Assembly (NCBI GenBank): GCA_000002435.2
Contig: CM018789.1
Direction: 5' to 3' (one strand)
Origin: Giardia intestinalis
Lineage: Eukaryota
Length of the DNA stretch: 64,000 nucleotides
Within the stretch, counting starts at the first letter, position 1, and each line of letters opens with the position of its first letter. The notes below the pieces were generated by a model, which worked only from the letters and a program-made list of their open reading frames with translations, did no database searches and was not told the origin of the DNA. The translations under genes were made by a program, and so were the position numbers. This document shows positions 3,665 to 21,167 of the stretch, in pieces.

Positions 3665-6600
3665 CTATGCAGAGGGAATGATGGTGGAGATCGTGCGAAC
3701 TACTGCCTCCTTCTTCTCAGGGGTTACGATAGATGAGCAGTGAGTTGCGTAGTACATGGCTGTACGATTGTTGCTATCACGGAGCTCTGCCTCCAGAGAA
3801 ACAAGACACATCACAGCGTCCAAGGATCCATTGTAGCAGGCGTGCATGAGCGCGGAGCACTGATTGCCGATTGAAATGCCAGTCTTATCCTGGAGACCTC
3901 CCTCAAGAGGCATGAGAAGCCGCACCACTTCAGGTTTGTTGCTGCGTGCGGCGTACATAAGGGCGGTCATTCCATTGTTTGACCTGAGCCTGCTCTCACG
4001 TTTCTTGAGCATATTAACAAAGCAGGTATTGCCTTTGTATGCCGCGTACATAAGCGCAGTCTTGCCATCCTTGTCCTGCAAACCAGATTGAACCTGGAAC
4101 AACGACCAGCCAAGCAGATAGTCGTCGGCTATGATGGCGTCCATTAACTCTGTCCGTCGTCCTCCTGCTGTGCTGAAGCTAGAGACGTCTGCACCCTCTA
4201 GCTTAGTCAGTAACTGCGCCACCTTAAAGTCTTCCCGTTTGAGGGCCAGGTGCAGGGCCAGTTTGCCATCTTTGCGCCGTAAGCCTCCTTCCAATGGAGC
4301 AAGAAGCCTAATCATGTCTTGGTTTCCTTTATTAACTGCCAACATAAGGGCTGTCGTGCCGTCCTTTAGCTGAGCTTTGGCGTATTGCAGAGCACGATGA
4401 GCAGCGTCAATATTATTGACTAGAACGGCCTGCATTAAGGGCGTGTGCTCTGTAGCCTTGCGTTGCGGTGATTGTGTACCATCGATAATTGTACTGGGCT
4501 TACTAAACCTAGGGCTGCTGCTGGGTCCACCGACAAGGTTAGTCTGGTTCTTGATCGTACTTGAACTGCGGCCGGGACCGGTTTGTGACTGGGGCTGTTG
4601 GGCCTGTTCTCTCGTCAATAGCATGACAGCATCCTGTAGCTGGTTCATCTGTCTCTGAAGATGGTCCAACTTAGCAGAAGAAGCCCCCCTGTCTCCAACA
4701 TATGGAGAAATAATAGAGGGAGAGTCGTGTCGCAGCTGCTGATCATTGACTCGGCCAGAGAAGGGACTTGACTGCTCTAACCTTACTTCAACCCTATCCG
4801 CATCTGTCTCCAACTTATGAATCTTTCCTTTTAAGTCCGTTATGTGGCGTCTGAGTGTCTCTATGTCGCTGAAAGCATCTAGAATAGCATGGTATGTGAG
4901 ATCGGTCATTGTTTCCCCGTCACAAACAGCACTCCGCTTCTCTAAAAGTGATACTAATCTTATATTCTCAGACTGGACCTCATCAATCAGGGCCTTTTGA
5001 TCGTCATTTGCCTTCTTAAGGACACCAAGCTCGTGCCTTAGTTCACCCTGATCATTAAGATCGGCTAACAATTGGTCAACCCTGCCAGTTAAAGATGTGC
5101 ACTCGTTATTCAGATCCTCGATTAACTTGTCCTTCTTATGGTGCTCTTCAGCACCTTTAAGAACTTCAGAAAGCTGTTGTAGAAGGTCCTCCCTTTCATT
5201 TCTTAGAAGCACAAGCGCACCTTTGGATTTGTCCAACTCATCCGAAAGAAGCTTGTTCTCGTTGTTGAGCTGCTTGACTTTGTCTGTGTTACGTTGGTTC
5301 TGAGAAGCGAGCTCTGCACAATTGGGACAGTTCCCGGCGTAATCATACGGGTGATCTTCCCAGCCGTCGTCCCCTCGTTGCTTCTGCTTCCCCCGAGCCT
5401 GTGACGGTGATGATTGCTTTGTTGCTTCAAGAATATCGTTCTGCTGCTTTATGCGCGCTTGCAGCACCTGAATTAAAGACTGGTCGTTTTTCTGGACTTG
5501 TTCTGCATGGTCTCTATAAGAGTCGAATTCCTGTTGTAAGCGGTTCAAGTCTGTATCACTAGATAGAGCAGCTGGTTGTTTTGTAGGTGAAGAGTGTCTA
5601 GGGAAGCGTTGGTGCCTGAGTGTATTTTGCAGAGAAACGATGGCTTCATCCTTCTGTTGAATACGGTTGTTTAGCTCTTGTAATTCGCCTCGTAATTGTT
5701 GAATAATTCGCGAAGCTTCGATATTAGCGCTTAGAGCATCATAGTCATTAGCAACAGACATCCCGGCGTGGGATTTGGCCGCATTTTCCTGTGCCTCAGA
5801 AAGAGATGCGCGCAAGAGAGATATTTCGCGAACCAAGCGGGCTATTTCTTCATCTTTTTCGATCATGCGCCCTGCAATATTCCGACTTTCTGCAGCAAAA
5901 GCCTGTACTTGGTCTGAAAGAGACTGGGCGAGATTATTTTCAACAGCCCCGACAAAGTCCATGTGCTTCTGAAAACGCTCCTGGGCTAAGGTGTATTCTG
6001 CCAACAATGCGTCATAGTCGGCCCTAGGGACAACATCTGCTAAATATTCGTCTGATTCCTGTTCCATAGGATAGAGAGTCTTAGGCGGAAGGATTGCAGT
6101 GGGAATTTGAACTGGCTGCCCATAAGGAGCATATCCATCAGCAGAAAAGTTGATGTCTTGCTGCGCGCTTCGTGATCTCAGAGGAGACGCAGTTCTGCTG
6201 GTCTGCGCACTACGCACCTCATCGAGCTCGGCGTATAACTGGCTTATCTCTTGATCCTTTTCTTCTAAAAGCTTTTGCGTGCGGTGCTGCCCAGAGACGA
6301 ACAAGTTGATCTGATTGCTTACAGTGTCTGCCAAATTGCGCTCCACGGTCTTCGTGAAATTGACGTGATTCTTGAACTTGTTCTGAGTATCTGCTAGAGT
6401 CGTCTCCAGCTCGTGTATCCTCTGCATCAAAGTGTCTATCTGTTTATTTTTCTGGTCCATGAGCTGATGAAGCTTAGCAGTATCAGAGCTGAACGGCCCC
6501 ACAGGTATCTCAGAAATCGTGCTTATTGTGCTCTCCTCCAACTTCATGTGTTGCCCTGGTCCAGAAGTGGCGGTACTGGAAGTAGAGGTAGGGCCAGTCG

Positions 6601-7957
6601 CCCTCTGCGCTAAGGCTGAATGCTGGGCCTCGGTCCGATCTGTCTTCTCCTGAAGCAAGAGTTGCAAGGAAGCAATTATGTTATCCGGTTGGTAGGCGTC
6701 TTCCCTTCCGTGATAGTGAAACGCAATAATCCCTTTGATATTATCTAGCAGCGCTTCTAAGCGCCTTATATTGTGAGTTTTCTCATCCAGTTTTTCTAAT
6801 AGCTTCAAGTTCTCTGCTCTGTAGGTCTTTATCTCCTCAGCAGACGGGGATACATCCATGTTCGGGGAGACACTCCGCAAATCATCAAAGACCCTAGTGT
6901 CACAAGGAGAAATAAGGGGAGCATAGACCTTTGTGAACTCGCAAAGAGAATAATAAAGTAGTTTGGACTCTCTACTTGCGATGTCAAGTTGGTACTTCTT
7001 TAGCGACCGAAAGATGTGAGATAACACTTGAGATTCTGCGTACAAGGATTCATAGGTCAACGAAGCGGCTCGAACATCTGCAGTGTGTAACAGCAAAGAT
7101 TGAAGACGCTGTATCTCATCGTCTCGGTCTTGCAAAAGTCGTTCCCAGTGGTTGGAAGTCCTTGGCCTAAATTCGGTCTTAGGCGAAGATGAAGCTGACA
7201 TTACATTTAGGCTTACTTCGGGAGCAACTGTTGTGCTATATCTGTCGTATCCATCGGTTGATTCCTTCCGACTTCCTGAGGGAAGGTAGTTGCCACGAAA
7301 GTCAGGCTTACTTGATGATATGGGAATAGGCTCAGATTCTATAGATAGTACAGGGGGAGAGCCTTGGAGGGTAGGAGGTCCAGGACTGTTGAGCTCTGCC
7401 TTCTTGTCACAGCGTACCTCACGCAGAAGGTCGACAAGATCGAACTTCTCGCTCTCTTGCGCAAGAGCACTAAGTCGATTGCGTTCATCATCATCTAGTG
7501 GATTGCTCGATAGCAGAATGTGCAGAATTTCCGCATTGCCAATGGCAATGGCAAAGTCAAAGACAGAATGTCCGTCCGCGTCTTTTCTAAGAGGATATGC
7601 GCCGCTTAGATACTCAACCACATCTTTAGCCTCGTAGCTCACGGCAATCATAAAGACATCCTGGTCATTGGCGCCGATAACATTCTTCTCGAGTGGACCC
7701 AGATATGCGCAAATGGGCAGATGGTCCTGCATGGCTGCGAGCATCATGGCTGTGTGGCCTTCTGAATTTAGCATCCCAGACTCCTTTGGGGCGAGCAGCT
7801 CAACAATCTCTAAACTTCCGCGCTTTGCAGCCAGCATAAGGCCTGTTGTCCCAGTTGAATCAGTCCGCCGAGCACAGCCCTCCATTAGTTTCTTTACTGC
7901 AGGGACGTTCCGTGCAGAAATGGCCTGAATCCAGTCATCAGGCGCATCACTACTCAT
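3665..7957 (-). CDS. Ankyrin-repeat / coiled-coil protein, 1430 aa (Giardia 'protein 21.1'-like architecture)
   Basis: ATG at 7955-7957 (rev-comp). N-terminal ankyrin repeats ('GTTGLMLAAKRGSLEIVELL', 'GHTAMMLAA'), a ~800-aa heptad-rich central region, and C-terminal ankyrin repeats ('GTTALMLAVNKGNQDMIRLL', 'GKTALMYAAYKGN', 'GMTALMYAA'). Confidence 0.85.
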   Translation of the reverse strand: MSSDAPDDWIQAISARNVPAVKKLMEGCARRTDSTGTTGLMLAAKRGSLEIVELLAPKESGMLNSEGHTAMMLAAMQDHLPICAYLGPLEKNVIGANDQDVFMIAVSYEAKDVVEYLSGAYPLRKDADGHSVFDFAIAIGNAEILHILLSSNPLDDDERNRLSALAQESEKFDLVDLLREVRCDKKAELNSPGPPTLQGSPPVLSIESEPIPISSSKPDFRGNYLPSGSRKESTDGYDRYSTTVAPEVSLNVMSASSSPKTEFRPRTSNHWERLLQDRDDEIQRLQSLLLHTADVRAASLTYESLYAESQVLSHIFRSLKKYQLDIASRESKLLYYSLCEFTKVYAPLISPCDTRVFDDLRSVSPNMDVSPSAEEIKTYRAENLKLLEKLDEKTHNIRRLEALLDNIKGIIAFHYHGREDAYQPDNIIASLQLLLQEKTDRTEAQHSALAQRATGPTSTSSTATSGPGQHMKLEESTISTISEIPVGPFSSDTAKLHQLMDQKNKQIDTLMQRIHELETTLADTQNKFKNHVNFTKTVERNLADTVSNQINLFVSGQHRTQKLLEEKDQEISQLYAELDEVRSAQTSRTASPLRSRSAQQDINFSADGYAPYGQPVQIPTAILPPKTLYPMEQESDEYLADVVPRADYDALLAEYTLAQERFQKHMDFVGAVENNLAQSLSDQVQAFAAESRNIAGRMIEKDEEIARLVREISLLRASLSEAQENAAKSHAGMSVANDYDALSANIEASRIIQQLRGELQELNNRIQQKDEAIVSLQNTLRHQRFPRHSSPTKQPAALSSDTDLNRLQQEFDSYRDHAEQVQKNDQSLIQVLQARIKQQNDILEATKQSSPSQARGKQKQRGDDGWEDHPYDYAGNCPNCAELASQNQRNTDKVKQLNNENKLLSDELDKSKGALVLLRNEREDLLQQLSEVLKGAEEHHKKDKLIEDLNNECTSLTGRVDQLLADLNDQGELRHELGVLKKANDDQKALIDEVQSENIRLVSLLEKRSAVCDGETMTDLTYHAILDAFSDIETLRRHITDLKGKIHKLETDADRVEVRLEQSSPFSGRVNDQQLRHDSPSIISPYVGDRGASSAKLDHLQRQMNQLQDAVMLLTREQAQQPQSQTGPGRSSSTIKNQTNLVGGPSSSPRFSKPSTIIDGTQSPQRKATEHTPLMQAVLVNNIDAAHRALQYAKAQLKDGTTALMLAVNKGNQDMIRLLAPLEGGLRRKDGKLALHLALKREDFKVAQLLTKLEGADVSSFSTAGGRRTELMDAIIADDYLLGWSLFQVQSGLQDKDGKTALMYAAYKGNTCFVNMLKKRESRLRSNNGMTALMYAARSNKPEVVRLLMPLEGGLQDKTGISIGNQCSALMHACYNGSLDAVMCLVSLEAELRDSNNRTAMYYATHCSSIVTPEKKEAVVRTISTIIPSA

Positions 7958-8636: not shown

Positions 8637-9548
8637 CTAGTCAAGATATACAGCATAGATTTCATCCTCTATCCTGCACTCATTGACTCCGCGGACAATC
8701 CGGAAGTACCCGTTTTCGCCCCAATCGGGGCCCCAGGAGTTCTTTATAATCCAGTAGTCCGTCCCGTCATCAGTGGTCCCGTAGCCAACTATTTCCAAAG
8801 CATGGAACCCAAGATTGATGGTTCCATAGGTGTGTTTATAGACACCGCTTTCATAGTACGACAGGTCAGCGTACACGACGATCATGGTCTGCAGCGGTCC
8901 GCCAGCGACGAGCATTCCCATTATGGCCGGAACACTCTTGCTCACCTGTCCATATCCATGTGCCTTGTAGAGCTGTATCGGAGATCCGTCGTCACAGACC
9001 GCAGGGCACGGAGACGCTACGGTGTGACCATAGTCAACGTACTTAACGCATTCAGCTGTGGTTGCTCCTGTGAAAGTTAGAAAGCTCCATGTCGGTTGAA
9101 AATCGCCTCCATCACAGCCAAAGTTCTCTAGTGAGCAGGATATGAGGTGTTGCTGCGAGTAGGAGACGGCCTCCTTATCGATGCCCATCGCACAGCGCCT
9201 GTCCCCGAACACTCCTATAGCTGAGAATGCCCAACATCCCCCGCAACTTCCTTGGTCCAGCGCTGGTTTCACGCACTGAGGGTACTCATCACGGAAGTCG
9301 AACTGAGGCGGAATAGGATCTACGAGTTCCTGGACTTCTGTTATCGAAATTGGTGGTAGAGAGCCAGATCTTGCTCTAAGACGGTCGGGACGGATCAGCA
9401 TGCTACGAAATTCATCTTCTGTGACGTTTTCAAACCTTTTTGGCATCCCTGCTTTCCATGGAGGATTGAGAGCCTGAATCCGCCTTAGCTCGGCGCGGCT
9501 CACCAGGGGCTTTGCACAAACTACAGCCAAGAGCAAAGATAAAGCCAT
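8637..9548 (-). CDS. Cathepsin B-like cysteine protease (papain family C1), 303 aa
   Basis: Signal-peptide-like N-terminus. Active-site Cys block 'QGSCGGCWAFSA', His block 'HALEIVGYG' and Asn block 'WIIKNSWGPDWGENGYF'. Collinear with Giardia CP2/CP3-type cathepsin B ('LNPPWKAGMPKRFE', 'DFRDEYPQC'). Confidence 0.9.
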   Translation of the reverse strand: MALSLLLAVVCAKPLVSRAELRRIQALNPPWKAGMPKRFENVTEDEFRSMLIRPDRLRARSGSLPPISITEVQELVDPIPPQFDFRDEYPQCVKPALDQGSCGGCWAFSAIGVFGDRRCAMGIDKEAVSYSQQHLISCSLENFGCDGGDFQPTWSFLTFTGATTAECVKYVDYGHTVASPCPAVCDDGSPIQLYKAHGYGQVSKSVPAIMGMLVAGGPLQTMIVVYADLSYYESGVYKHTYGTINLGFHALEIVGYGTTDDGTDYWIIKNSWGPDWGENGYFRIVRGVNECRIEDEIYAVYLD

Positions 9549-9970
9549 ATATATTTGATTCGTAATTACATGACTCGTGTATTATGAGAAGGGCACATTA
9601 ATTGGTCAGTTCATAGCAAGGGACTGCACCAGCTTGCTATCACTGTGGTGAATGAACTTCAAAAAATCACTTTGGTTGGACTGTTTAAACTATGTACCAC
9701 ACGTAGACGATAAACTTACGAGAAAGCTATGCTGCTGCGCCACGTGTGGTACCCAGCCTAGTACCCCGGGGGACGGTGCCCGGGTGCGCCCATCGCCGCC
9801 TGGCCACGGACTGCTCCAGCCACTACAGAGCCAGGCAAGCCAGGCATCTGGCCCTGCTGAGAGCGCGCTCGGCTGTCTCTGCAGGCCTCAGTGGAAGGGA
9901 CACGGGTGCCCGCTGCTTGTCGGCATTCCGGTGCCACCCCGGGGAGCTGCCACAAGGATCGTCTTGACGC

Positions 9971-9985
9971 GTTTACTATCTAAGT
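9971..9985 (-). terminator. VSP-type extended polyadenylation signal (ACTTAGATAGTAAAC)
   Basis: Minus-strand sequence 13 nt downstream of the VSP stop matches the conserved Giardia VSP 3' motif ACTYAGRTAGTRAAY, which contains the general poly(A) signal AGTRAAY. Confidence 0.75.
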
Positions 9986-9997
9986 ACACAGCTAAGT

Positions 9998-12900
9998 CTA
10001 CGCCTTCCCGCGGCAGAGGAACCACCAACACAAGAAGCCAACAAGACCACCTACAACGATGACAGCAGCCACTGCGATACCTGCGATGGCGCCTGTAGAA
10101 AGGCCGCTACTCTTGTTTGTGTTGGGAATCACGCACGCGTCGCCCTGGAGCTGGTAGCCATTACCATCGTCGCACTTGCAGGCCTTCGCCGAGCCGGCAG
10201 CCGGGTCTATTACCTCTTCCGGGGCAGTGCAGGCGGCCTTGCAGCTCTTCTTGTTGGCCGCGACGTATTGCGCTTTATCCTTGCATGTAAGACAGGTTTC
10301 CCCGCCGCTCAAGTCGCACGTCTCGCACCCGGCCCCTTCCAGCGTCGGGCACGCGTTGGCCTGTCCCTTGACGCACGCGTCGCCCTGGAGCTGGTAGCCA
10401 TTACCATCGTCGCACTTGCAGGCCTTCGCCGAGCCGGCAGCCGGGTCTATTACCTCTTCCGGGGCAGTGCAGGCGGCCTTGCAGCTCTTCTTGTTGGCCG
10501 CGACGTATTGCGCTTTATCCTTGCATGTAAGACAGGTTTCCCCGCCGCTCAAGTCGCACGTCTCGCACCCGGCCCCTTCCAGCGTCGGGCACGCGTTGGC
10601 CTGTCCCTTGACGCACGCGTCGCCCTGGAGCTGGTAGCCATTACCATCGTCGCACTTGCAGGCCTTCGCCGAGCCGGCAGCCGGGTCTATTACCTCTTCC
10701 GGGGCAGTGCAGGCGGCCTTGCAGCTCTTCTTGTTGGCCGCGACGTATTGCGCTTTATCCTTGCATGTAAGACAGGTTTCCCCGCCGCTCAAGTCGCACG
10801 TCTCGCACCCGGCCCCTTCCAGCGTCGGGCACGCGTTGGCCTGTCCCTTGACGCACGCGTCGCCCTGGAGCTGGTAGCCATTACCATCGTCGCACTTGCA
10901 GGCCTTCGCCGAGCCGGCAGCCGGGTCTATTACCTCTTCCGGGGCAGTGCAGGCGGCCTTGCAGCTCTTCTTGTTGGCCGCGACGTATTGCGCTTTATCC
11001 TTGCATGTAAGACAGGTTTCCCCGCCGCTCAAGTCGCACGTCTCGCACCCGGCCCCTTCCAGCGTCGGGCACGCGTTGGCCTGTCCCTTGACGCACGCGT
11101 CGCCCTGGAGCTGGTAGCCATTACCATCGTCGCACTTGCAGGCCTTCGCCGAGCCGGCAGCCGGGTCTATTACCTCTTCCGGGGCAGTGCAGGCGGCCTT
11201 GCAGCTCTTCTTGTTGGCCGCGACGTATTGCGCTTTATCCTTGCATGTAAGACAGGTTTCCCCGCCGCTCAAGTCGCACGTCTCGCACCCGGCCCCTTCC
11301 AGCGTCGGGCACGCGTTGGCCTGTCCCTTGACGCACGCGTCGCCCTGGAGCTGGTAGCCATTACCATCGTCGCACTTGCAGGCCTTCGCCGAGCCGGCAG
11401 CCGGGTCTATTACCTCTTCCGGGGCAGTGCAGGCGGCCTTGCAGCTCTTCTTGTTGGCCGCGACGTATTGCGCTTTATCCTTGCATGTAAGACAGGTTTC
11501 CCCGCCGCTCAAGTCGCACGTCTCGCACCCGGCCCCTTCCAGCGTCGGGCACGCGTTGGCCTGTCCCTTGACGCACGCGTCGCCCTGGAGCTGGTAGCCA
11601 TTACCATCGTCGCACTTGCAGGCCTTCGCCGAGCCGGCAGCCGGGTCTATTACCTCTTCCGGGGCAGTGCAGGCGGCCTTGCAGCTCTTCTTGTTGGCCG
11701 CGACGTATTGCGCTTTATCCTTGCATGTAAGACAGGTTTCCCCGCCGCTCAAGTCGCACGTCTCGCACCCGGCCCCTTCCAGCGTCGGGCACGCGTTGGC
11801 CTGTCCCTTGACGCACGCGTCGCCCTGGAGCTGGTAGCCATTACCATCGTCGCACTTGCAGGCCTTCGCCGAGCCGGCAGCCGGGTCTATTACCTCTTCC
11901 GGGGCAGTGCAGGCGGCCTTGCAGCTCTTCTTGTTGGCCGCGACGTATTGCGCTTTATCCTTGCATGTAAGACAGGTTTCCCCGCCGCTCAAGTCGCACG
12001 TCTCGCACCCGGCCCCTTCCAGCGTCGGGCACGCGTTGGCCTGTCCCTTGACGCACGCGTCGCCCTGGAGCTGGTAGCCATTACCATCGTCGCACTTGCA
12101 GGCCTTCGCCGAGCCGGCAGCCGGGTCTATTACCTCTTCCGGGGCAGTGCAGGCGGCCTTGCAGCTCTTCTTGTTGGCCGCGACGTATTGCGCTTTATCC
12201 TTGCATGTAAGACAGGTTTCCCCGCCGCTCAAGTCGCACGTCTCGCACCCGGCCCCTTCCAGCGTCGGGCACGCGTTGGCCTGTCCCTTGACGCACGCGT
12301 CGCCCTGGAGCTGGTAGCCATTACCATCGTCGCACTTGCAGGCCTTCGCCGAGCCGGCAGCCGGGTCTATTACCTCTTCCGGGGCAGTGCAGGCGGCCTT
12401 GCAGCTCTTCTTGTTGGCCGCGACGTATTGCGCTTTATCCTTGCATGTAAGACAGGTTTCCCCGCCGCTCAAGTCGCACGTCTCGCACCCGGCCCCTTCC
12501 AGCGTCGGGCACGCGTTGGCCTGTCCCTTGACGCACGCGTCGCCCTGGAGCTGGTAGCCATTACCATCGTCGCACTTGCAGGCCTTCGCCGAGCCGGCAG
12601 CCGGGTCTATTACCTCTTCCGGGGCAGTGCAGGCGGCCTTGCAGCTCTTCTTGTTGGCCGCGACGTATTGCGCTTTATCCTTGCATGTAAGACAGGTTTC
12701 CCCGCCGCTCAAGTCGCACGTCTCGCACCCGGCCCCTTCCAGCGTCGGGCACGCGTTGGCCTGTCCCTTGACGCACGCGTCGCCCTGGAGCTGGTAGCCA
12801 TTACCATCGTCGCACTTGCAGGCCTTCGCCGAGCCGGCAGCCGGGTCTATTACCTCTTCCGGGGCAGTGCAGGCGGCCTTGCAGCTCTTCTTGTTGGCCG

Positions 12901-15847
12901 CGACGTATTGCGCTTTATCCTTGCATGTAAGACAGGTTTCCCCGCCGCTCAAGTCGCACGTCTCGCACCCGGCCCCTTCCAGCGTCGGGCACGCGTTGGC
13001 CTGTCCCTTGACGCACGCGTCGCCCTGGAGCTGGTAGCCATTACCATCGTCGCACTTGCAGGCCTTCGCCGAGCCGGCAGCCGGGTCTATTACCTCTTCC
13101 GGGGCAGTGCAGGCGGCCTTGCAGCTCTTCTTGTTGGCCGCGACGTATTGCGCTTTATCCTTGCATGTAAGACAGGTTTCCCCGCCGCTCAAGTCGCACG
13201 TCTCGCACCCGGCCCCTTCCAGCGTCGGGCACGCGTTGGCCTGTCCCTTGACGCACGCGTCGCCCTGGAGCTGGTAGCCATTACCATCGTCGCACTTGCA
13301 GGCCTTCGCCGAGCCGGCAGCCGGGTCTATTACCTCTTCCGGGGCAGTGCAGGCGGCCTTGCAGCTCTTCTTGTTGGCCGCGACGTATTGCGCTTTATCC
13401 TTGCATGTAAGACAGGTTTCCCCGCCGCTCAAGTCGCACGTCTCGCACCCGGCCCCTTCCAGCGTCGGGCACGCGTTGGCCTGTCCCTTGACGCACGCGT
13501 CGCCCTGGAGCTGGTAGCCATTACCATCGTCGCACTTGCAGGCCTTCGCCGAGCCGGCAGCCGGGTCTATTACCTCTTCCGGGGCAGTGCAGGCGGCCTT
13601 GCAGCTCTTCTTGTTGGCCGCGACGTATTGCGCTTTATCCTTGCATGTAAGACAGGTTTCCCCGCCGCTCAAGTCGCACGTCTCGCACCCGGCCCCTTCC
13701 AGCGTCGGGCACGCGTTGGCCTGTCCCTTGACGCACGCGTCGCCCTGGAGCTGGTAGCCATTACCATCGTCGCACTTGCAGGCCTTCGCCGAGCCGGCAG
13801 CCGGGTCTATTACCTCTTCCGGGGCAGTGCAGGCGGCCTTGCAGCTCTTCTTGTTGGCCGCGACGTATTGCGCTTTATCCTTGCATGTAAGACAGGTTTC
13901 CCCGCCGCTCAAGTCGCACGTCTCGCACCCGGCCCCTTCCAGCGTCGGGCACGCGTTGGCCTGTCCCTTGACGCACGCGTCGCCCTGGAGCTGGTAGCCA
14001 TTACCATCGTCGCACTTGCAGGCCTTCGCCGAGCCGGCAGCCGGGTCTATTACCTCTTCCGGGGCAGTGCAGGCGGCCTTGCAGCTCTTCTTGTTGGCCG
14101 CGACGTATTGCGCTTTATCCTTGCATGTAAGACAGGTTTCCCCGCCGCTCAAGTCGCACGTCTCGCACCCGGCCCCTTCCAGCGTCGGGCACGCGTTGGC
14201 CTGTCCCTTGACGCACGCGTCGCCCTGGAGCTGGTAGCCATTACCATCGTCGCACTTGCAGGCCTTCGCCGAGCCGGCAGCCGGGTCTATTACCTCTTCC
14301 GGGGCAGTGCAGGCGGCCTTGCAGCTCTTCTTGTTGGCCGCGACGTATTGCGCTTTATCCTTGCATGTAAGACAGGTTTCCCCGCCGCTCAAGTCGCACG
14401 TCTCGCACCCGGCCCCTTCCAGCGTCGGGCACGCGTTGGCCTGTCCCTTGACGCACGCGTCGCCCTGGAGCTGGTAGCCATTACCATCGTCGCACTTGCA
14501 GGCCTTCGCCGAGCCGGCAGCCGGGTCTATTACCTCTTCCGGGGCAGTGCAGGCGGCCTTGCAGCTCTTCTTGTTGGCCGCGACGTATTGCGCTTTATCC
14601 TTGCATGTAAGACAGGTTTCCCCGCCGCCGTCCGCCCCCCCCCCCCGGCCCGGCCTGTCCTGACAGGTCGCCACGGTCCTTCCATCGGCACCACCCGCCG
14701 GCCGGCACCTCTTCCCAGGGCCGGCTCCGGGCCGCGACGTATGCGCCGCTGTGCGCCCCCGCTCAGTCCACGCTTGGACGCACGCGTCGCCCTGGAGCTG
14801 GTAGCCATTACCATCGTCGCACTTGCAGGCCTTCGCCGAGCCGGCAGCCGGGTCTATTACCTCTTCCGGGGCAGTGCAGGCGGCCTTGCAGCTCTTCTTG
14901 TTGGCCGCGACGTATTGCGCTTTATCCTTGCATGTAAGACAGGTTTCCCCGCCGCTCAAGTCGCACGTCTCGCACCCGGCCCCTTCCAGCGTCGGGCACG
15001 CGTTGGCCTGTCCCTTGACGCACGCGTCGCCCTGGAGCTGGTAGCCATTACCATCGTCGCACTTGCAGGCCTTCGCCGAGCCGGCAGCCGGGTCTATTAC
15101 CTCTTCCGGGGCAGTGCAGGCGGCCTTGCAGCTCTTCTTGTTGGCCGCGACGTATTGCGCTTTATCCTTGCATGTAAGACAGGTTTCCCCGCCGCTCAAG
15201 TCGCACGTCTCGCACCCGGCCCCTTCCAGCGTCGGGCACGCGTTGGCCTGTCCCTTGACGCACGCGTCGCCCTGGAGCTGGTAGCCATTACCATCGTCGC
15301 ACTTGCAGGCCTTCGCCGAGCCGGCAGCCGGGTCTATTACCTCTTCCGGGGCAGTGCAGGCGGCCTTGCAGCTCTTCTTGTTGGCCGCGACGTATTGCGC
15401 TTTATCCTTGCATGTAAGACAGGTTTCCCCGCCGCTCAAGTCGCACGTCTCGCACCCGGCCCCTTCCAGCGTCGGGCACGCGTTGGCCTGTCCCTTGACG
15501 CACGCGTCGCCCTGGAGCTGGTAGCCATTACCATCGTCGCACTTGCAGGCCTTCGCCGAGCCGGCAGCCGGGTCTATTACCTCTTCCGGGGCAGTGCAGG
15601 CGGCCTTGCAGCTCTTCTTGTTGGCCGCGACGTATTGCGCTTTATCCTTGCATGTAAGACAGGTTTCCCCGCCGCTCAAGTCGCACGTCTCGCACCCGGC
15701 CCCTTCCAGCGTCGGGCACGCGTTGGCCTGTCCCTTGACGCACGCGTCGCCCTGGAGCTGGTAGCCATTACCATCGTCGCACTGCGCGGTCTTCTCGTTG
15801 TGCTTTGCCAGCACTGTTACACAAACTAGGAGAAATCCTACCAACAT
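9998..15847 (-). CDS. vsp: Variant-specific surface protein (VSP) with ~23 tandem 80-aa cysteine-rich repeats, ~1949 aa
   Basis: C-terminus '...[31 protein letters not shown]' (TM helix plus invariant CRGKA tail). Body rich in CXXC (CETC, CLTC). Signal peptide '[14 protein letters not shown]'. The track ORF begins at GTG 15868; first ATG is 7 codons in (15847). VSP poly(A) motif follows the stop. Confidence 0.92.
10131..15783. repeat. 240-bp tandem repeat array (~23 units) inside the VSP coding region
   Basis: Identical 73-aa antisense ORFs recur every 240 bp from 10176 to 14256 and 14823 to 15543, so units appear 100% identical. Unit encodes '[80 protein letters not shown]'. Confidence 0.95.
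14629..14776. repeat. Aberrant repeat unit: ~148-bp GC-rich segment with a poly-C tract replacing 61 bp of the canonical unit (net +87 bp, in frame)
   Basis: After 'ggtttccccgccgc' the unit diverges into 'cgtccgcccccccccccggcccggcctgtcctgacagg...' and rejoins at 'gacgcacgcgtcgccctggag'. It encodes the G/R/A-rich '[52 protein letters not shown]' and lacks the Cys pattern. Confidence 0.8.
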
Positions 15848-16059
15848 TAGCCGGAGTACACGTGCCACTGCTCTTCTGTCAGACTTGTGTGTTGCCGCGA
15901 GCAGTGAGAGACAGCCGCTCTCGCTCTTCCTGATCAGTTAGACTGGAGAAGGACGAGATGATAGCATGCCCATCGAAGGCCAGCTGATAGTGCGGTTCCC
16001 CCTGGCTTCAATAGAAACAGGACCAGTGAGGGCCAGGCTCAGATCGCACCTCTCTTGTG

Positions 16060-16136
16060 GAATGATCGTTCGGGGTGCACTCTTGTACATTGCTGTCAGT
16101 ATGTTTGTCGGCTTCCTTTGCAGAGGTAAGGTGTAG
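16060..16136 (+). pseudogene. VSP C-terminal relic (TM + 'CRGKV*' tail fragment)
   Basis: Plus-strand frame reads '...VRGALLYIAVSMFVGFLCRGKV*' ending at TAG 16134-16136, followed by 'atttaaatagcaaac', a degenerate VSP poly(A) motif. The open frame upstream (from 15942) has no CXXC content, so only the tail survives. Confidence 0.6.
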
Positions 16137-19100
16137 ATTTAAATAGCAAACGCGTCCCTTGTACAACCTGCTCTCCCCATCAGGCACGGACTCCGAGATC
16201 TCTGTGCATGCGGGACCAAGAAATCCTAAGTGAGCAGCGATGCTCCTCCTGCTCCAGTAGCCCAGCCGCTAGCAGCTCCTCTCCAGGCTCCTTTGCTCCC
16301 TGGCCACAGCCTTCTGTGCTCTCTTGCAGTCCCTAGAGGAGATACCGGGTCCGTGGAAGTGCGGACCAACAGAGGTAAGCCCATGAGACGCTCTCGCCTG
16401 GTGTGTGCATAGCTCTGATCTTGTGTACTAAATGCTACTAAGGCTCCCCATCGCATAACAAGGTGCCAGGTGGGGTTCGGAAGGCAGCCAGCCCTCCCAG
16501 ATCTGGACAGGAGGGAAGCACTGCCCAAAGCGTGCTGCCTCCTGAGTTGATAGGCCGGGACTCCTGTTACCCCAGATCATCATAGTGCTACCGCTGTTCA
16601 CTATGGAGGCACTCTGACCCACAGTGCCTGAGGTTGTTGGTGCAGGCGGCAAAGGGCTCTTCATAGTGGGCTACCATCAGTGGAAGGAACGGGAGCCTGG
16701 GTGTCTTGTCCTTCTGCCAGTGGTTGGCCGGGCTCATGATCAGCACCCTTTGCTGTGGGTACTGGGGTGGCGGAAGTTCCCACTTGCTGACAAGGAGCCG
16801 GGCGATGCTCGCTTGTCATCGTCAACCCGGACTGGGCTGGTCCTGGGCAGATAGACAGTGAGTACGGGGATCCCGTCCCCCGTCGTAAACCACGCCACAC
16901 GGAGAGGGTGTGGTAGCTCGATGCATTTTCCTACGTTACACGACGCAAAGAAGAACGGCCTTTTGATGCGTAGCTCTGGAAGCCTGCAGAGCCCAACCGA
17001 GGGGACTACATCCTGGTGTTGACTTCTGATACGGTTCGGTAGAGGCCAGCTCGATGCTCGCAAGCTTGTGGGAAGCACCAGGGCCGGCACATGCACCTGG
17101 ACAGCAACGCAGGCACACATCTCGGATGCAACTCCGCTGAGGATCTTGCGAGGGGTCGGCTTGGGTCAGTGGTGGAAGGACTTTGCGCAAGCGCTCCATG
17201 CATCAGGGGCCCCTCGAGACCACAAAAGCTCGGCGGCGCTGGCGCACATGTGGACGCGAGACGGTGGGAAAGAGCTGCGTGGTGACTTATAGATGGAAAG
17301 GCTGGGCGCGCATAACAATACGCCCAGGAGAGCTATGCACAGCGCAGTGGCCCGGCTGGCTCCTCTTGTAATACGGAGCATCGGCTGCGGGCATGTGCTC
17401 TTGAAGAGTGGGGGCATCCAGATGAGTAGTGCAGACGTGAGTGAATTGACGGCGCTCAGAGTATGCATCGGGTGGACAAGTAGGGGACAAGAGCTTATGG
17501 CACCACCTGGTCGACGGATGGCTCAAGATGTGTAAGGTACAGCAATCATTCGACCAAAGGTGATGATTGCCCGACAGATGCCAGAGCAGCTGTGTAGATT
17601 GGGCCCTGGTGGTGGTTTGCCACAGGAGGACGCAGGCAGTATGTTTGGATAATAGATACGCTGACTGCCACCGGTTTGCACAATACACCTCTACAATCGA
17701 TCATCTCACCGTGTGTGAGGAGGAGATGAGGCTCCTCGACTTCAGAAAAAGTGGACCTTCAGTAAACTCTGCTCTGCTGCAAATGCATAAAATCAAAAAC
17801 CAGCCTCCAACTCATCTGCAAGTTCTACGGCCTTTCCACGCTTAGGAGCCGAGGAGGCACTACAGGTGTCCCTGCTGTAATCCGGGCTAATGGCTAGTCT
17901 CTGTAGCCCCAGCCCTACCCCGCCAGCCCGCCGGGCACATCTACACTTTCTGTGCGAACCGACTCTCTAGGAACCGTCATGCACAGATAGTCTTCCGAGT
18001 ACTTAGAAGACACCATCCTCTGCTGAGGCGTGTCATCAAGGGCCAAGCACTAAGGCGAGGATGGCCAGAGACAGACCCCTCGCAGTTCTGTTCAACATTA
18101 GCAGCGAGCATGCAAACGAGTGTGCGGTCTTGACGTGCACTGTGATCCAGGTGCCCGGCAGACTGGGCCCATAGCAGCTGGTGCGCAGGCCCCGTCGCTA
18201 GCCTGTGCACAAGCCGTGGTCCACCTCGAAGGACAGCGGAGGATTCTGCGACCCCTTCTGGGTGTACAGCCGTCACTATGGAGCGCGGCGAACAGGCATC
18301 TGCACAGAGGTCGCGGGCTCGCTTAGAGGCGTGTAGACAGCCGACGCCCCGCCTTGTTGCAATGAGAGCTCTGAGATCAGGCAGCCGCTCCACCCATCGG
18401 CCATCATGTGAATATACATGCACCGTCCGAGAAGACCACTACAGTGCCTAGACGACACTATAAGCGTATGCGCCCCCCGCTATAATAAACAAGTGGCAGA
18501 CAGACCAGCAGCGGAAGCAGCAGGGGTATGCCGAGCCGGTGTAGGGCGCATGGTTAGAACCACAGCTCTCTGGGACAATGACAGTACACTGCTCGAACAC
18601 CCCGTTGCATCCGTCCGTGCTATTCGTAGGCTGCAGCGCCTGGCAGGCCCGCAACTAGCACAGCGCGCCCCCAAGCCGCGCACCCAGCATGCAGGGCCAG
18701 GACGGCTGACCCTGTGCGAAGAGGCGCCCTCCCAGGAAGACGACAGTCGCCATCGCTGCCCAAGTTTTTTAGCATTCAAACGCGGGCCCGATGGTCACGC
18801 TGGCTTCCCTGGCTTTTGCACTGCCTGTCGAGCCTGGCTTCTGACCGGCCTGGGATGGCTGACGGGAGCGTGCAGGTCGGCGCCCTGGTTGCCGGGCCCA
18901 GCCTTCCATCCGCACTTGATGCTGAGCGATAACCCGAGCGGCGCAGGTGGTCTTCTTCGCTCTACATGCAGTGAGCTGCCTGGACGGATGCACGACCGGC
19001 CGTCTGCCTCTGCTCTGCTTCTGGCCACCAGGAGGCGCTGGCTCGAGTGCGTGCCACGGGGCGCTGCCCGCGATGACAGGGGCAGCGCATCACTTCTCGG

Positions 19101-19838
19101 GCCTTCCGGTCCATCAGCAGGTGATCCTCAGAGCGCACTTGGAGCCCGGACAGACACACCAGCACGGACCCAGCCACCTTGCGATGCCGCGATCTACCAC
19201 GGACACTGCAGCCTCCGCAATCATCCACTCTGCCTGTCTTTTGCTTAAGAAAAGAGACACTGTATTTAGCAGCCCCCGTGACTTACCGCAACGGGCCAGT
19301 TTCCCAGCATCTTGCCGGATGCCTCCCTTGCACCGCACTGCCCTATTCTTCCCTGCGACAGAAAGAGCTCTGGGGCCCTGGCCCAGACGGAGCCCATTCC
19401 CATAACCTTGCTGCACTCCCCGTCAGGCCCGTCATCACAGAGCACACGCGCACAGGGTCATCCACGCTGCATCACCCTGGGCCTCGTCACCGAGGTAGCC
19501 CCAGCTGGCAGGCCAGACGCCTATGGGCTCACAAGCCCCGCCTCCTGCATGCTCTAGAGACGGCCGGTGCCCTGTCCCGTCGCCTGGCGCGCCGTCGGGT
19601 TCCATCAAGCGCGGCTGAAGAGGCCCGGGCCATAACACTGCCGAAGCCACTGCATTGTCACCAGCAATCAGGTGCACCTCATTTCTCAGGAAATCTTTCT
19701 CTGCCCTAAAAAACGTCTGCTGCCCGATAATTCTGGTAATTACTACGATTGCTTCTGAGACCAAAACGACCTGTGTGTACAGCCGAAGGCATCTAATAGA
19801 GAAAGAATCCCCTAATAAATTAAATTTACCCTGAATTT
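16137..19838. other. ~3.7 kb GC-rich region without credible coding potential (gene desert / degenerate sequence)
   Basis: Only short overlapping ORFs (60-276 aa) in all six frames, with R/A/P/G-rich low-complexity translations. Base composition is visibly GC-richer than flanking genes. No start context or domain is recognisable. Confidence 0.6.
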
Positions 19839-21167
19839 ATGATTGATGTTTTTGTAGATGTTCTTGGCAAACTAGCTGCAGACGGAATCTACAACAAAGC
19901 CATCGATCCAGCTATTGCATTTTCAACGTTCTATACCATATTAACAGATCAACAATTAGTCGGGAACATCCTTTCTCTTTATTTCCACAAACACCCCCAG
20001 CACCCCACAAAAACAGCCATTTTCTGTCTTTGTGAAGAACTATTCGGTGAGAAGGTCGCCACCAACCTAGTTAAAAGCTGGCCTATAGCGTCTTCTAAGG
20101 TCGCGGACCTGGCTGAGCGTCTTCACGCCAGGATCTGTGTAGGCAATACACCTATTTTAAACACAAACACACAGCCAAATGCACGGCAAGGAGCACTCCT
20201 CTGGCGCACTGACGAGTCTCCTACCTTGAGCCATCTTAAACGGCAGCTTGATGAATTGTTAGAATGTTGTAACAGCCCCAAAGATGCTGCACAACAGGTC
20301 TCCTTTCAATCAATCTTGCCAGTAATCAAAGACATGGCAGAGACAATTGCTAGACTATCCACGGAATGGCATGAACAGAGTAGAGCCGCTCTAACGGAAA
20401 AAGACGCTCAAATCAAAGACCTGAAGCATCGCATCTGCGAGTTGGAGGCAGGCCTATCGGACATGTGCGTTAAGATAGAAGTCTATATGGGACAGATGGA
20501 GGCATATTCTCATGAAATGGCCGCCAAGAATGAGCAAATTCTCATCCTGCATCAACAGCTAAAGGAGGTACGGACCGAGTCTAGTGATCGCGAGCTAAAT
20601 GCACTGAAGGAGCTACTGAACGAGAAGGATTGTCTGATAACAAACATTCGCGCAGATCTAACGGAATCCACGACCACTGCTGATCGCCTGGCGCACGAGT
20701 GTATACACCTGAATCAAAGAAGCGAGGAATTATCTCTTTACAAATCTCTGGTTGCTAATACAATAGATGCCTTGAAAACCCTATCAGAAAGAGATGCAGA
20801 ACTATCATACTCACCTCCGGCGGACGATACCTATCTGAGGCTTCCGGAATACGTTGCGTTTGTTATAGATGTAATCCGGACAAAAGCCCACTGGCTTGTG
20901 ACAGAAGAACCTGGCCAGAGTCTCCCCCTTCCATCGCAAGATACAAGCCCGTTGCTTCACTCCGTTCGTGGGGGATCAGTGGCGCCCTCGGTAGTTGAGT
21001 CTACAACAGCGGCAAATAATTCTTCTCTAGCACCAGATAGCAGCCACCTCAACCCACCCTATTCCTACCGTTCAGCTAGCAATTCCAGCAGCAGTATACT
21101 AGGAAGATTGGCAATGATTGGAAGAGATAAGGATGACGTCAGATCTCATCCACGAGGAGCTCAATAG
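19839..21167 (+). CDS. Hypothetical coiled-coil protein, 442 aa
   Basis: ATG with strongly AT-rich 5' context ('cctaataaattaaatttaccctgaatttATG'). Central heptad-rich region ('KDAQIKDLKHRICELEAGL', 'NEQILILHQQLKEVR'). Confidence 0.65.
   Translation: MIDVFVDVLGKLAADGIYNKAIDPAIAFSTFYTILTDQQLVGNILSLYFHKHPQHPTKTAIFCLCEELFGEKVATNLVKSWPIASSKVADLAERLHARICVGNTPILNTNTQPNARQGALLWRTDESPTLSHLKRQLDELLECCNSPKDAAQQVSFQSILPVIKDMAETIARLSTEWHEQSRAALTEKDAQIKDLKHRICELEAGLSDMCVKIEVYMGQMEAYSHEMAAKNEQILILHQQLKEVRTESSDRELNALKELLNEKDCLITNIRADLTESTTTADRLAHECIHLNQRSEELSLYKSLVANTIDALKTLSERDAELSYSPPADDTYLRLPEYVAFVIDVIRTKAHWLVTEEPGQSLPLPSQDTSPLLHSVRGGSVAPSVVESTTAANNSSLAPDSSHLNPPYSYRSASNSSSSILGRLAMIGRDKDDVRSHPRGAQ

Follow-up and report, generated by a model that had tools for sequence, protein, structure and literature searches.

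GL50803_0050391 of Giardia intestinalis WB: a giant variant-specific surface protein gene with an amplified ten-cysteine module and a probable assembly artefact within its repeat array

Tandem repeats are a recurrent feature of Giardia's variant-specific surface proteins (VSPs). In a 2010 catalogue, 30 vsp genes carry repeats, their units measuring 105-516 nt (PMC2996952), and a 2022 preprint on Giardia cysteine-rich proteins counts 36 repeat-bearing members among 136 VSPs (10.1101/2022.03.07.483299). Two named genes of isolate WB are among the closest described comparisons. The vspC5 gene (vsp90) has about 25 copies of a 105-bp repeat, and vspA6 (CRP170, vsp67) has about 22-25 copies of a 195-bp repeat and is entered with 2259 aa in the 2010 catalogue; the repeats of VspA6 are immunodominant, and the alleles of either gene differ in how many repeats they have (PMC2996952). 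The catalogue itself rests on the 2007 assembly, and its authors call the copy numbers approximate and note that they differ between alleles (PMC2996952). Here we analyzed a stretch of 64,000 nucleotides of G. intestinalis DNA (contig CM018789.1 of assembly GCA_000002435.2), referred to below as the window, which contains on its minus strand the giant VSP gene GL50803_0050391. The gene is an already annotated, catalogued and ordinary member of the tandem-repeat VSP class. It is very likely a functional VSP gene in which a single module has been amplified about 23-fold, and in which a 148-nt aberrant patch inside the array is an artefact of consensus calling or polishing.

Like vspC5, GL50803_0050391 has a short 5′ leader with a signal peptide followed by an array that runs up to the conserved 3′ region encoding the transmembrane (TM) segment and the CRGKA tail, so that nearly all of the exposed protein is repeat; its unit, however, is 80 aa long instead of the 35 aa of vspC5 and differs in sequence and cysteine pattern. 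With vspA6 it shares giant size and more than 20 near-identical tandem units, whereas the vspA6 unit has 65 aa and is followed by a non-repeat VSP body of about 1.3 kb that is absent from GL50803_0050391. Likeness was also found to a set of giant VSPs, P0169-P0172 from the 2020 WB assembly (P0170 has 1983 aa and 26 x 74 aa) and P0173, which are built from homologous 74-75-aa modules with ten invariant cysteines; in P0170 and P0173, as in GL50803_0050391, the repeat reaches the TM tail. An insertion located between the cysteines of CxxxC and those of CxC makes the unit of GL50803_0050391 longer than those of these other giant VSPs. The mini-VSPs P0050, P0052, P0053 and P0064 have in common with it the type of signal peptide, the module and an identical linker/TM/CRGKA tail, but carry one module against about 23.

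The gene and its 240-bp repeat array

Read from the ATG at 15847, the open reading frame (ORF) gave an exact match to an annotated protein of G. intestinalis WB C6 named VSP (XP_037901615.1, KAE8301612.1, UniProt A0A644EZQ7). The minus-strand frame is open along its entire length from 9998 to 15868, and a first-pass annotation of this DNA, made from the letters alone, had given the gene as 9998-15868; the GTG at 15868 is not the real start, which is instead probably the ATG at 15847 within the candidate initiator (Inr) sequence TAATGTT. The S1 table of the 2022 preprint lists the gene under the id GL50803_0050391 on NC_051856.1 (chromosome 1) with 5850 nt, 1949 aa, the Inr ‘taatgtt’, 234 Cys and 45 CXXC motifs, and the protein sequence printed in these tables includes the patch (10.1101/2022.03.07.483299). 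Our own count was 234 Cys (12.0%), 45 CXXC, 23 CXC and 23 CXXXC, which agrees with the 11-12% Cys or so expected of a VSP ectodomain. A literature search by accession number for the product found no paper.

Tandem Repeats Finder called two separate arrays of a 240-bp unit (Table 1), at 100% matches and 0% indels in each, and an exact-string search recovered 22 full-length copies in a single register, all of them 240 bp apart save for one 567-bp step, and none elsewhere in the window. Each 80-aa unit holds 10 Cys and 2 CXXC. A 240-nt in-frame unit, 22.9 unit-equivalents and 100% identity place the gene in the tandem-repeat VSP subclass. The first-pass annotation had described about 23 perfectly identical tandem copies; the identity holds, both in the Tandem Repeats Finder result and in the 22 exact copies, but the continuity does not, since the patch between the two blocks had been overlooked. 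The architecture comprises a signal peptide, an ectodomain consisting of little else than head-to-tail 80-aa modules with 10 cysteines each, a short linker, one TM helix and CRGKA.

Family membership was assessed from several features. A shortened query (signal peptide, two units and tail) matched Pfam PF03302 (VSP) with 69.7 bits (E = 2.9e-19; gathering cut-off 31.4 bits), the match covering the TM/CRGKA end of the profile, while PF03302 was missing from the hmmscan output for the complete protein of 1949 aa. What the full-length hmmscan did match, DUF5874 (84 bits) and PHD_5, was rejected, as these matches had 0 significant stretches and were sums of weak repeated matches; long perfect repeats distort the domain annotation of this protein. 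The signal peptide was judged from the translation, from relatives and from the preprint S1 table and not from a predictor, and it is nearly identical in the repeat VSPs P0064, P0173 and P0175. In the linker, N175, S177 and L180-G183 are almost invariant in an alignment of 67 sequences (alignment A1). The PyAatgTT initiator consensus is present in 41% of vsp genes and in 72% of those not downstream in arrays (PMC2996952). The sequence 3′ of the stop codon is ACTTAGCTGTGTACTTAGATAGTAAACGCGT, and the S6 table of the preprint assigns the exact extended polyadenylation motif TACTTAGATAGTAAACGCGT to GL50803_0050391; genome-wide, 323 of 327 matches to this motif are VSPs or pseudo-VSPs (10.1101/2022.03.07.483299). 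The GGCY motif, a criterion of VSP membership, is absent from the whole protein; it is present in 83% of complete VSPs and hence not obligatory (PMC2996952), and by reading it is likewise missing from the one-module or all-repeat relatives P0052, P0053, P0170 and P0173. Taken with the exact annotated match, the Pfam match and the sequence hallmarks bear out the earlier view that the VSP identity is secure. The earlier reading that the ORF finishes with a TM segment and CRGKA and is followed by the extended poly(A) motif was confirmed, ACTTAGATAGTAAAC standing after the ORF end.

In the preprint table S13 of proteins with peptide evidence, GL50803_0050391 is marked ‘Unique’, and unique peptides were obtained for only 29 of 136 VSPs (10.1101/2022.03.07.483299). 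Translation is backed by these listed peptides, and the same listing is the one, indirect, line of evidence on surface expression and switching. We also asked how far the locus might be a silent or decaying VSP pseudogene, or a host to a real gene on the opposite strand. Pseudogenes are common among the VSP-like sequences of WB (208 pseudo-VSPs), but here the ORF is intact, with Inr, signal peptide and extended polyadenylation signal, and unique peptides are reported. As to the opposite strand, the identical antisense 73-aa ORFs of the first-pass annotation were found again, one per unit, and besides them one antisense frame is open throughout the array and across the patch as well (10268-15829, plus strand, 1853 aa). 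This frame begins at TTG, has no homologue and is open merely because the unit has no stops in it, and it is the sense product that matches Pfam VSP and dozens of VSPs. We give hardly any credence to either form of this alternative. The 1853-aa frame could be taken up by automated gene callers; nothing supports its status as a gene.

The 148-nt patch and the length of the array

The patch splits the array into its two blocks, shifts the repeat register and is itself non-periodic, encoding 52 aberrant in-frame residues with only two cysteines. When it was aligned with the 302 nt expected at this place (the remainder of one unit and a complete second one), it proved to be a perfect subsequence, with 148 matches, 0 mismatches and 0 insertions; 154 of the expected nt are lacking in 46 deletion events, mostly of 1-3 nt, and the alignment score stands at z = 9.9 over 500 dinucleotide-preserving shuffles. 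The loss is uneven among the four bases and strand-asymmetric, the fraction kept being 0.66 for C, 0.48 for G, 0.33 for A and 0.30 for T; the GC content of the patch is 0.78 against 0.64 in the unit, and the patch contains a newly created C12 run. Because 46 small deletions and no substitution stand beside 22 flawless copies, the patch resembles a consensus failure, and it is probably a consensus or polishing artefact and not biological. The 2020 assembly was built from HGAP contigs merged by overlap, with PBJelly gap closing from raw reads and repeated Quiver polishing, and Illumina repair touched only 85 indels genome-wide (PMC7000408). We infer that at the patch the draft and the reads may have disagreed in register or copy number, and that single-base polishing edits would then have taken out part of a surplus copy; such polishing (Quiver) or gap filling (PBJelly) could leave repeat sequence that has lost about half of its bases, one to a few at a time. 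The true array is probably seamless, and it would hold 23.2 or 24.2 copies if the patch alone is wrong.

Several points weigh against this interpretation. With a net change of 153 nt, or of 87 nt if 61 nt is all that should stand there, the patch retains the frame, and it is free of stop codons, which is what a genuine insert would show; in GC-rich DNA, chance alone would give this result roughly 1 time in 3. Both the artefact and the copy number were judged from the assembled sequence alone, and consensus calling from reads that map to several units may account for part of the perfect identity among the copies. Moreover, a search of the patch peptide (sense and antisense translations joined) against 5.8 billion proteins, run without a positive control, gave no match. 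This search appears to list matches up to about 1.75 times the query length, and the missing match was rejected as evidence since the database held no short ORF carrying a normal unit either.

Were the patch genuine, it would be a degenerate Cys-poor spacer rich in Arg, Gly and Pro between 4 and 19 modules, for example a hinge or a cleavage site. Besides staying in frame, it outlived two Quiver rounds and Illumina-based correction and was kept unchanged in RefSeq and in the 2022 catalogue. A record of 46 deletions with no substitution or insertion next to copies that are 100% identical is nevertheless unlike natural divergence, base dropout is strand-asymmetric, a C12 homopolymer has been created, and no comparable patch is present in the arrays of the other giant VSPs retrieved (P0169-P0173). 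We regard a genuine spacer as very unlikely.

As the pattern of the patch looks like a consensus or polishing artefact, the number of copies in the assembly (about 23-24) cannot be taken as secure. The first-pass annotation had warned of trouble with copy number and assembly at this locus, and both the damaged patch and the behaviour of short-read assemblies, which never enter the array, agree with that warning. Of the Logan short-read contigs with the flanking genes, all those on the side of the neighbouring cathepsin B gene break off at the conserved 3′ end of the VSP, 212-449 bp upstream of the cathepsin B ATG, and those on the opposite side break off 26-278 bp upstream of GL50803_00113616. 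Scaffolding drew on an MluI optical map, which cannot size the array, because each 240-bp unit has two MluI sites (ACGCGT); 46 of the 51 sites in the window fall within the array. Another giant VSP offers a concrete instance of an assembly-dependent repeat number: the 2010 catalogue enters CRP136 (GL50803_103142) with 22 copies and 1274 aa (PMC2996952), and the tables that rest on the 2020 assembly give it 28 motif copies and 1474 aa (10.1101/2022.03.07.483299).

These observations raise the question of an error on a larger scale, in which the locus has a clearly different copy number, or multiple alleles among the four genome copies, and the identity of the units is partly a consensus effect. 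The patch marks a disagreement between draft and reads, the optical map is blind to array length, short-read contigs halt on either side, the number for CRP136 changed from one assembly to the next, the allelic differences in vspA6 and vspC5 and the approximate numbers of the catalogue point the same way, and structural variants of WB are enriched at VSPs (PMC7048089). On the other hand, PacBio coverage was 200x, and the P0170 array (26 x 74 aa), of similar or greater length, is seamless in the same assembly, so arrays of 5-6 kb are within the reach of the reads; in addition, the repeats of the orthologue in isolate DH are also 100% identical and come from a different technology. We consider a larger misassembly a possibility to be taken seriously, though we lean somewhat away from it. 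The features of the locus, with the patch as a probable artefact, are given in Table 1.

Table 1. Coordinates of the features of the GL50803_0050391 locus within the window.
Feature	Position	Strand	Details and basis
Coding sequence of VSP GL50803_0050391	9998..15847	minus	1949 aa; ATG 15847-15845, stop 10000-9998; exact database match
Upstream 5′ region, ~245 nt	15848..16095	minus	common to P0175 and the DH orthologue
Candidate initiator element TAatgTT around the start codon	15843..15849	minus	sequence GGCTAATGTTGG; preprint S1 ‘taatgtt’
Signal peptide, 14 aa, hydrophobic	15806..15847	minus	from translation; identical in preprint S1 table
N-terminal repeat block	14777..15783	minus	4.19 perfect copies of the 240-bp/80-aa/10-Cys unit; protein periodicity 23-357
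Aberrant patch, 148 nt	14629..14776	minus	deletion-only derivative of ~1.26 units; alignment to repeat
C-terminal repeat block, reaching the juxtamembrane linker	10131..14628	minus	18.74 perfect copies, 18 exact at 240-bp spacing; protein periodicity 408-1906
Juxtamembrane linker, 13 aa	10091..10130	minus	from translation; identical in P0050 and P0052
Transmembrane helix (25 aa) and cytoplasmic CRGKA	10001..10090	minus	from translation; invariant columns in alignment A1
VSP-type extended polyadenylation motif TACTTAGATAGTAAACGCGT	9967..9986	minus	read from sequence; preprint S6 table

Relatives and amplification of the ten-cysteine module

A homology search returned about 245 Giardia proteins. 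The closest matches were small VSPs in which 1-3 copies of a 69-88-aa module precede the same linker and tail, among them P0049 (2 x 88 aa, 58% identity) and XP_001706456.1 (= P0050; one module, 76% identity over the aligned half); P0054 of isolate GS (3 x 74 aa) was also close, as were the WB proteins P0065 and P0073, and the one-module VSPs that align with the unit have 142-185 aa. A search with the full protein gave four more giant WB VSPs of 1099-1983 aa, to which a representative search added P0173. Their arrays consist of 10 to 26 copies of the 74-75-aa units; at the protein level P0169, P0170 and P0172 are perfectly periodic, P0171 is periodic save for one V/A difference in its first copy, and the units of P0173 are identical on reading its sequence. 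The representative search also returned P0174, a Cys-free repeat protein, which was discarded as a repeat-summing false positive.

Units from P0169-P0172, P0049, P0054, P0056, P0059, P0065 and P0073 were then aligned with the 80-aa unit in a common register, and this alignment showed ten invariant cysteines in the pattern C...GCxTC...TCxxC...CxxxC...CxC...C. Identity of the 80-aa unit was 28-40% to the units of P0169-P0172 and 61% to that of P0049. Since the module with its ten invariant cysteines is common to all units, GL50803_0050391 reads, on these alignments, as a mini-VSP whose single module has been amplified. The first-pass annotation had asked that the 80-aa unit be compared with catalogued ones; the 2010 WB catalogue has no 240-nt unit (PMC2996952), the gene is present in the 2022 tables, and the unit is a variant of the common 10-Cys module. 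The 2022 catalogue assigns repeat motif no. 12 both to the gene of P0050 and to GL50803_0050391 (10.1101/2022.03.07.483299). CRP136 (120-bp unit, half of 240) and CRP65 (228-bp unit, chromosome 1) were considered as kin and set aside, as neither is among the closest relatives of the module; no direct comparison with them was made.

Given that the arrays of the other giant VSPs (at the protein level) and the DNA repeat of the DH orthologue are perfectly periodic as well, the proposed recent expansion or concerted evolution of the array finds support. The array may have grown by unequal recombination among identical 240-bp units or by replication slippage among them, and the same process would keep the copies identical and make their number unstable.

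AlphaFold gave a confident model for a 213-aa construct made up of the final two units and the tail, with a mean predicted local distance difference test score of 82 and with most ten-residue blocks of the ectodomain near or above 90. It showed strings of short β-hairpins, in small units of disulfide type, and a helix at residues 189-210, which fits the TM segment. The top matches in a Foldseek search against the Protein Data Bank (PDB) were furin-like and TNFR-type repeats (R-spondin Fu1-Fu2, HER2/HER3, TNFR1), but they were weak (E >= 0.02, TM-score <= 0.34) and without sequence relationship, so that the modelled likeness is a resemblance only; it counts against a similarity of fold that no match in that search was significant (best E = 0.02). 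A sequence search of the PDB gave nothing meaningful, with no solved structure related by sequence. When GL50803_0050391 is the expressed VSP, the chain of modules may form a long rod of β-hairpins stabilised by disulfides or metal, and such a rod would display one epitope more than 20 times to the host.

The VSP slot beside cathepsin B CP1

Five ORFs around GL50803_0050391 gave exact matches to proteins of G. intestinalis WB clone C6, and the window derives from chromosome 1 of the 2020 PacBio reference (PMC7000408). Among the genes matched are the cathepsin B CP1 gene at 8640-9548 and the ankyrin repeat protein 1 gene at 3668-7957, both on the minus strand, and the hypothetical GL50803_00113616 at 19839-21164 on the plus strand. 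Additional VSP genes or stray copies of the repeat were searched for across the 64 kb, and none were found. The same gene order, with a VSP in the same place, was seen in isolate DH (assemblage A2; L001 8001-8690). In the DNA comparison of DH with WB, two flanking segments align, one running from the upstream side across the signal peptide, with close similarity over the upstream region of Table 1, and one from the TM region onward into the 3′ flank, where the DH orthologue carries TACTTAGGTAGTAAACGCGT at the position of the extended polyadenylation motif of WB. The body of the DH orthologue has a different unit of 225 bp (75 aa) in 2.2 perfectly identical copies; this array is probably collapsed in its assembly, so that the gene would have 2.2 or more copies. 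Identity of the DH unit was 37% to the unit of GL50803_0050391 and 65% to that of WB P0172, which lies on another chromosome. The slot of isolate P15 (assemblage E; L011 6238-7977) is occupied by an ordinary, repeat-free VSP of 579 aa. From these comparisons, the slot beside cathepsin B CP1 is syntenic in assemblages A1, A2 and E with its ectodomain replaced, and a replacement of the ectodomain at a conserved slot fits published ideas on recombination of vsp genes (PMC2996952).

Translated in frame, the upstream region (Table 1) aligns from one end to the other with an N-terminal extension in P0175, a 451-aa protein with 4 x 76-aa units that by length and repeat fits the catalogue entry vsp3 / GL50803_137740. 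The shared sequence suggests a group of repeat-bearing vsp genes with a common 5′ region. Between the VSP gene and GL50803_00113616, the stretch 15869-19838 (about 4 kb) has a raised GC content of 0.57-0.59 and no convincing ORF, in agreement with a published remark on gene-poor regions around VSPs; a 276-aa ORF at 18418-19248 matches unnamed short-contig ORFs only, and short-read contigs of WB-like samples break within this stretch.

The reference entry XP_037901615.1 / GL50803_0050391 probably carries 52 spurious residues and an uncertain repeat number, both of which would affect proteomic databases, read mapping, antibody and epitope work, and counts of CXXC motifs or size for this VSP. The new point is this probable 148-nt polishing scar in the reference; biologically the gene adds little, tandem-repeat VSPs having been known for decades. 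A more far-reaching proposal, which we find rather unlikely, is that the slot upstream of cathepsin B CP1 is a conserved ‘landing site’ for VSP ectodomain cassettes, exchanged as wholes from lineage to lineage, that amplification of mini-VSPs is ongoing, and that the patch stems from true differences in copy number between the four genome copies of WB-C6 and not from a purely technical error. Compared across WB, DH and P15, the slot shows cleanly, on a small scale, how the ectodomain turns over while the VSP locus stays fixed.

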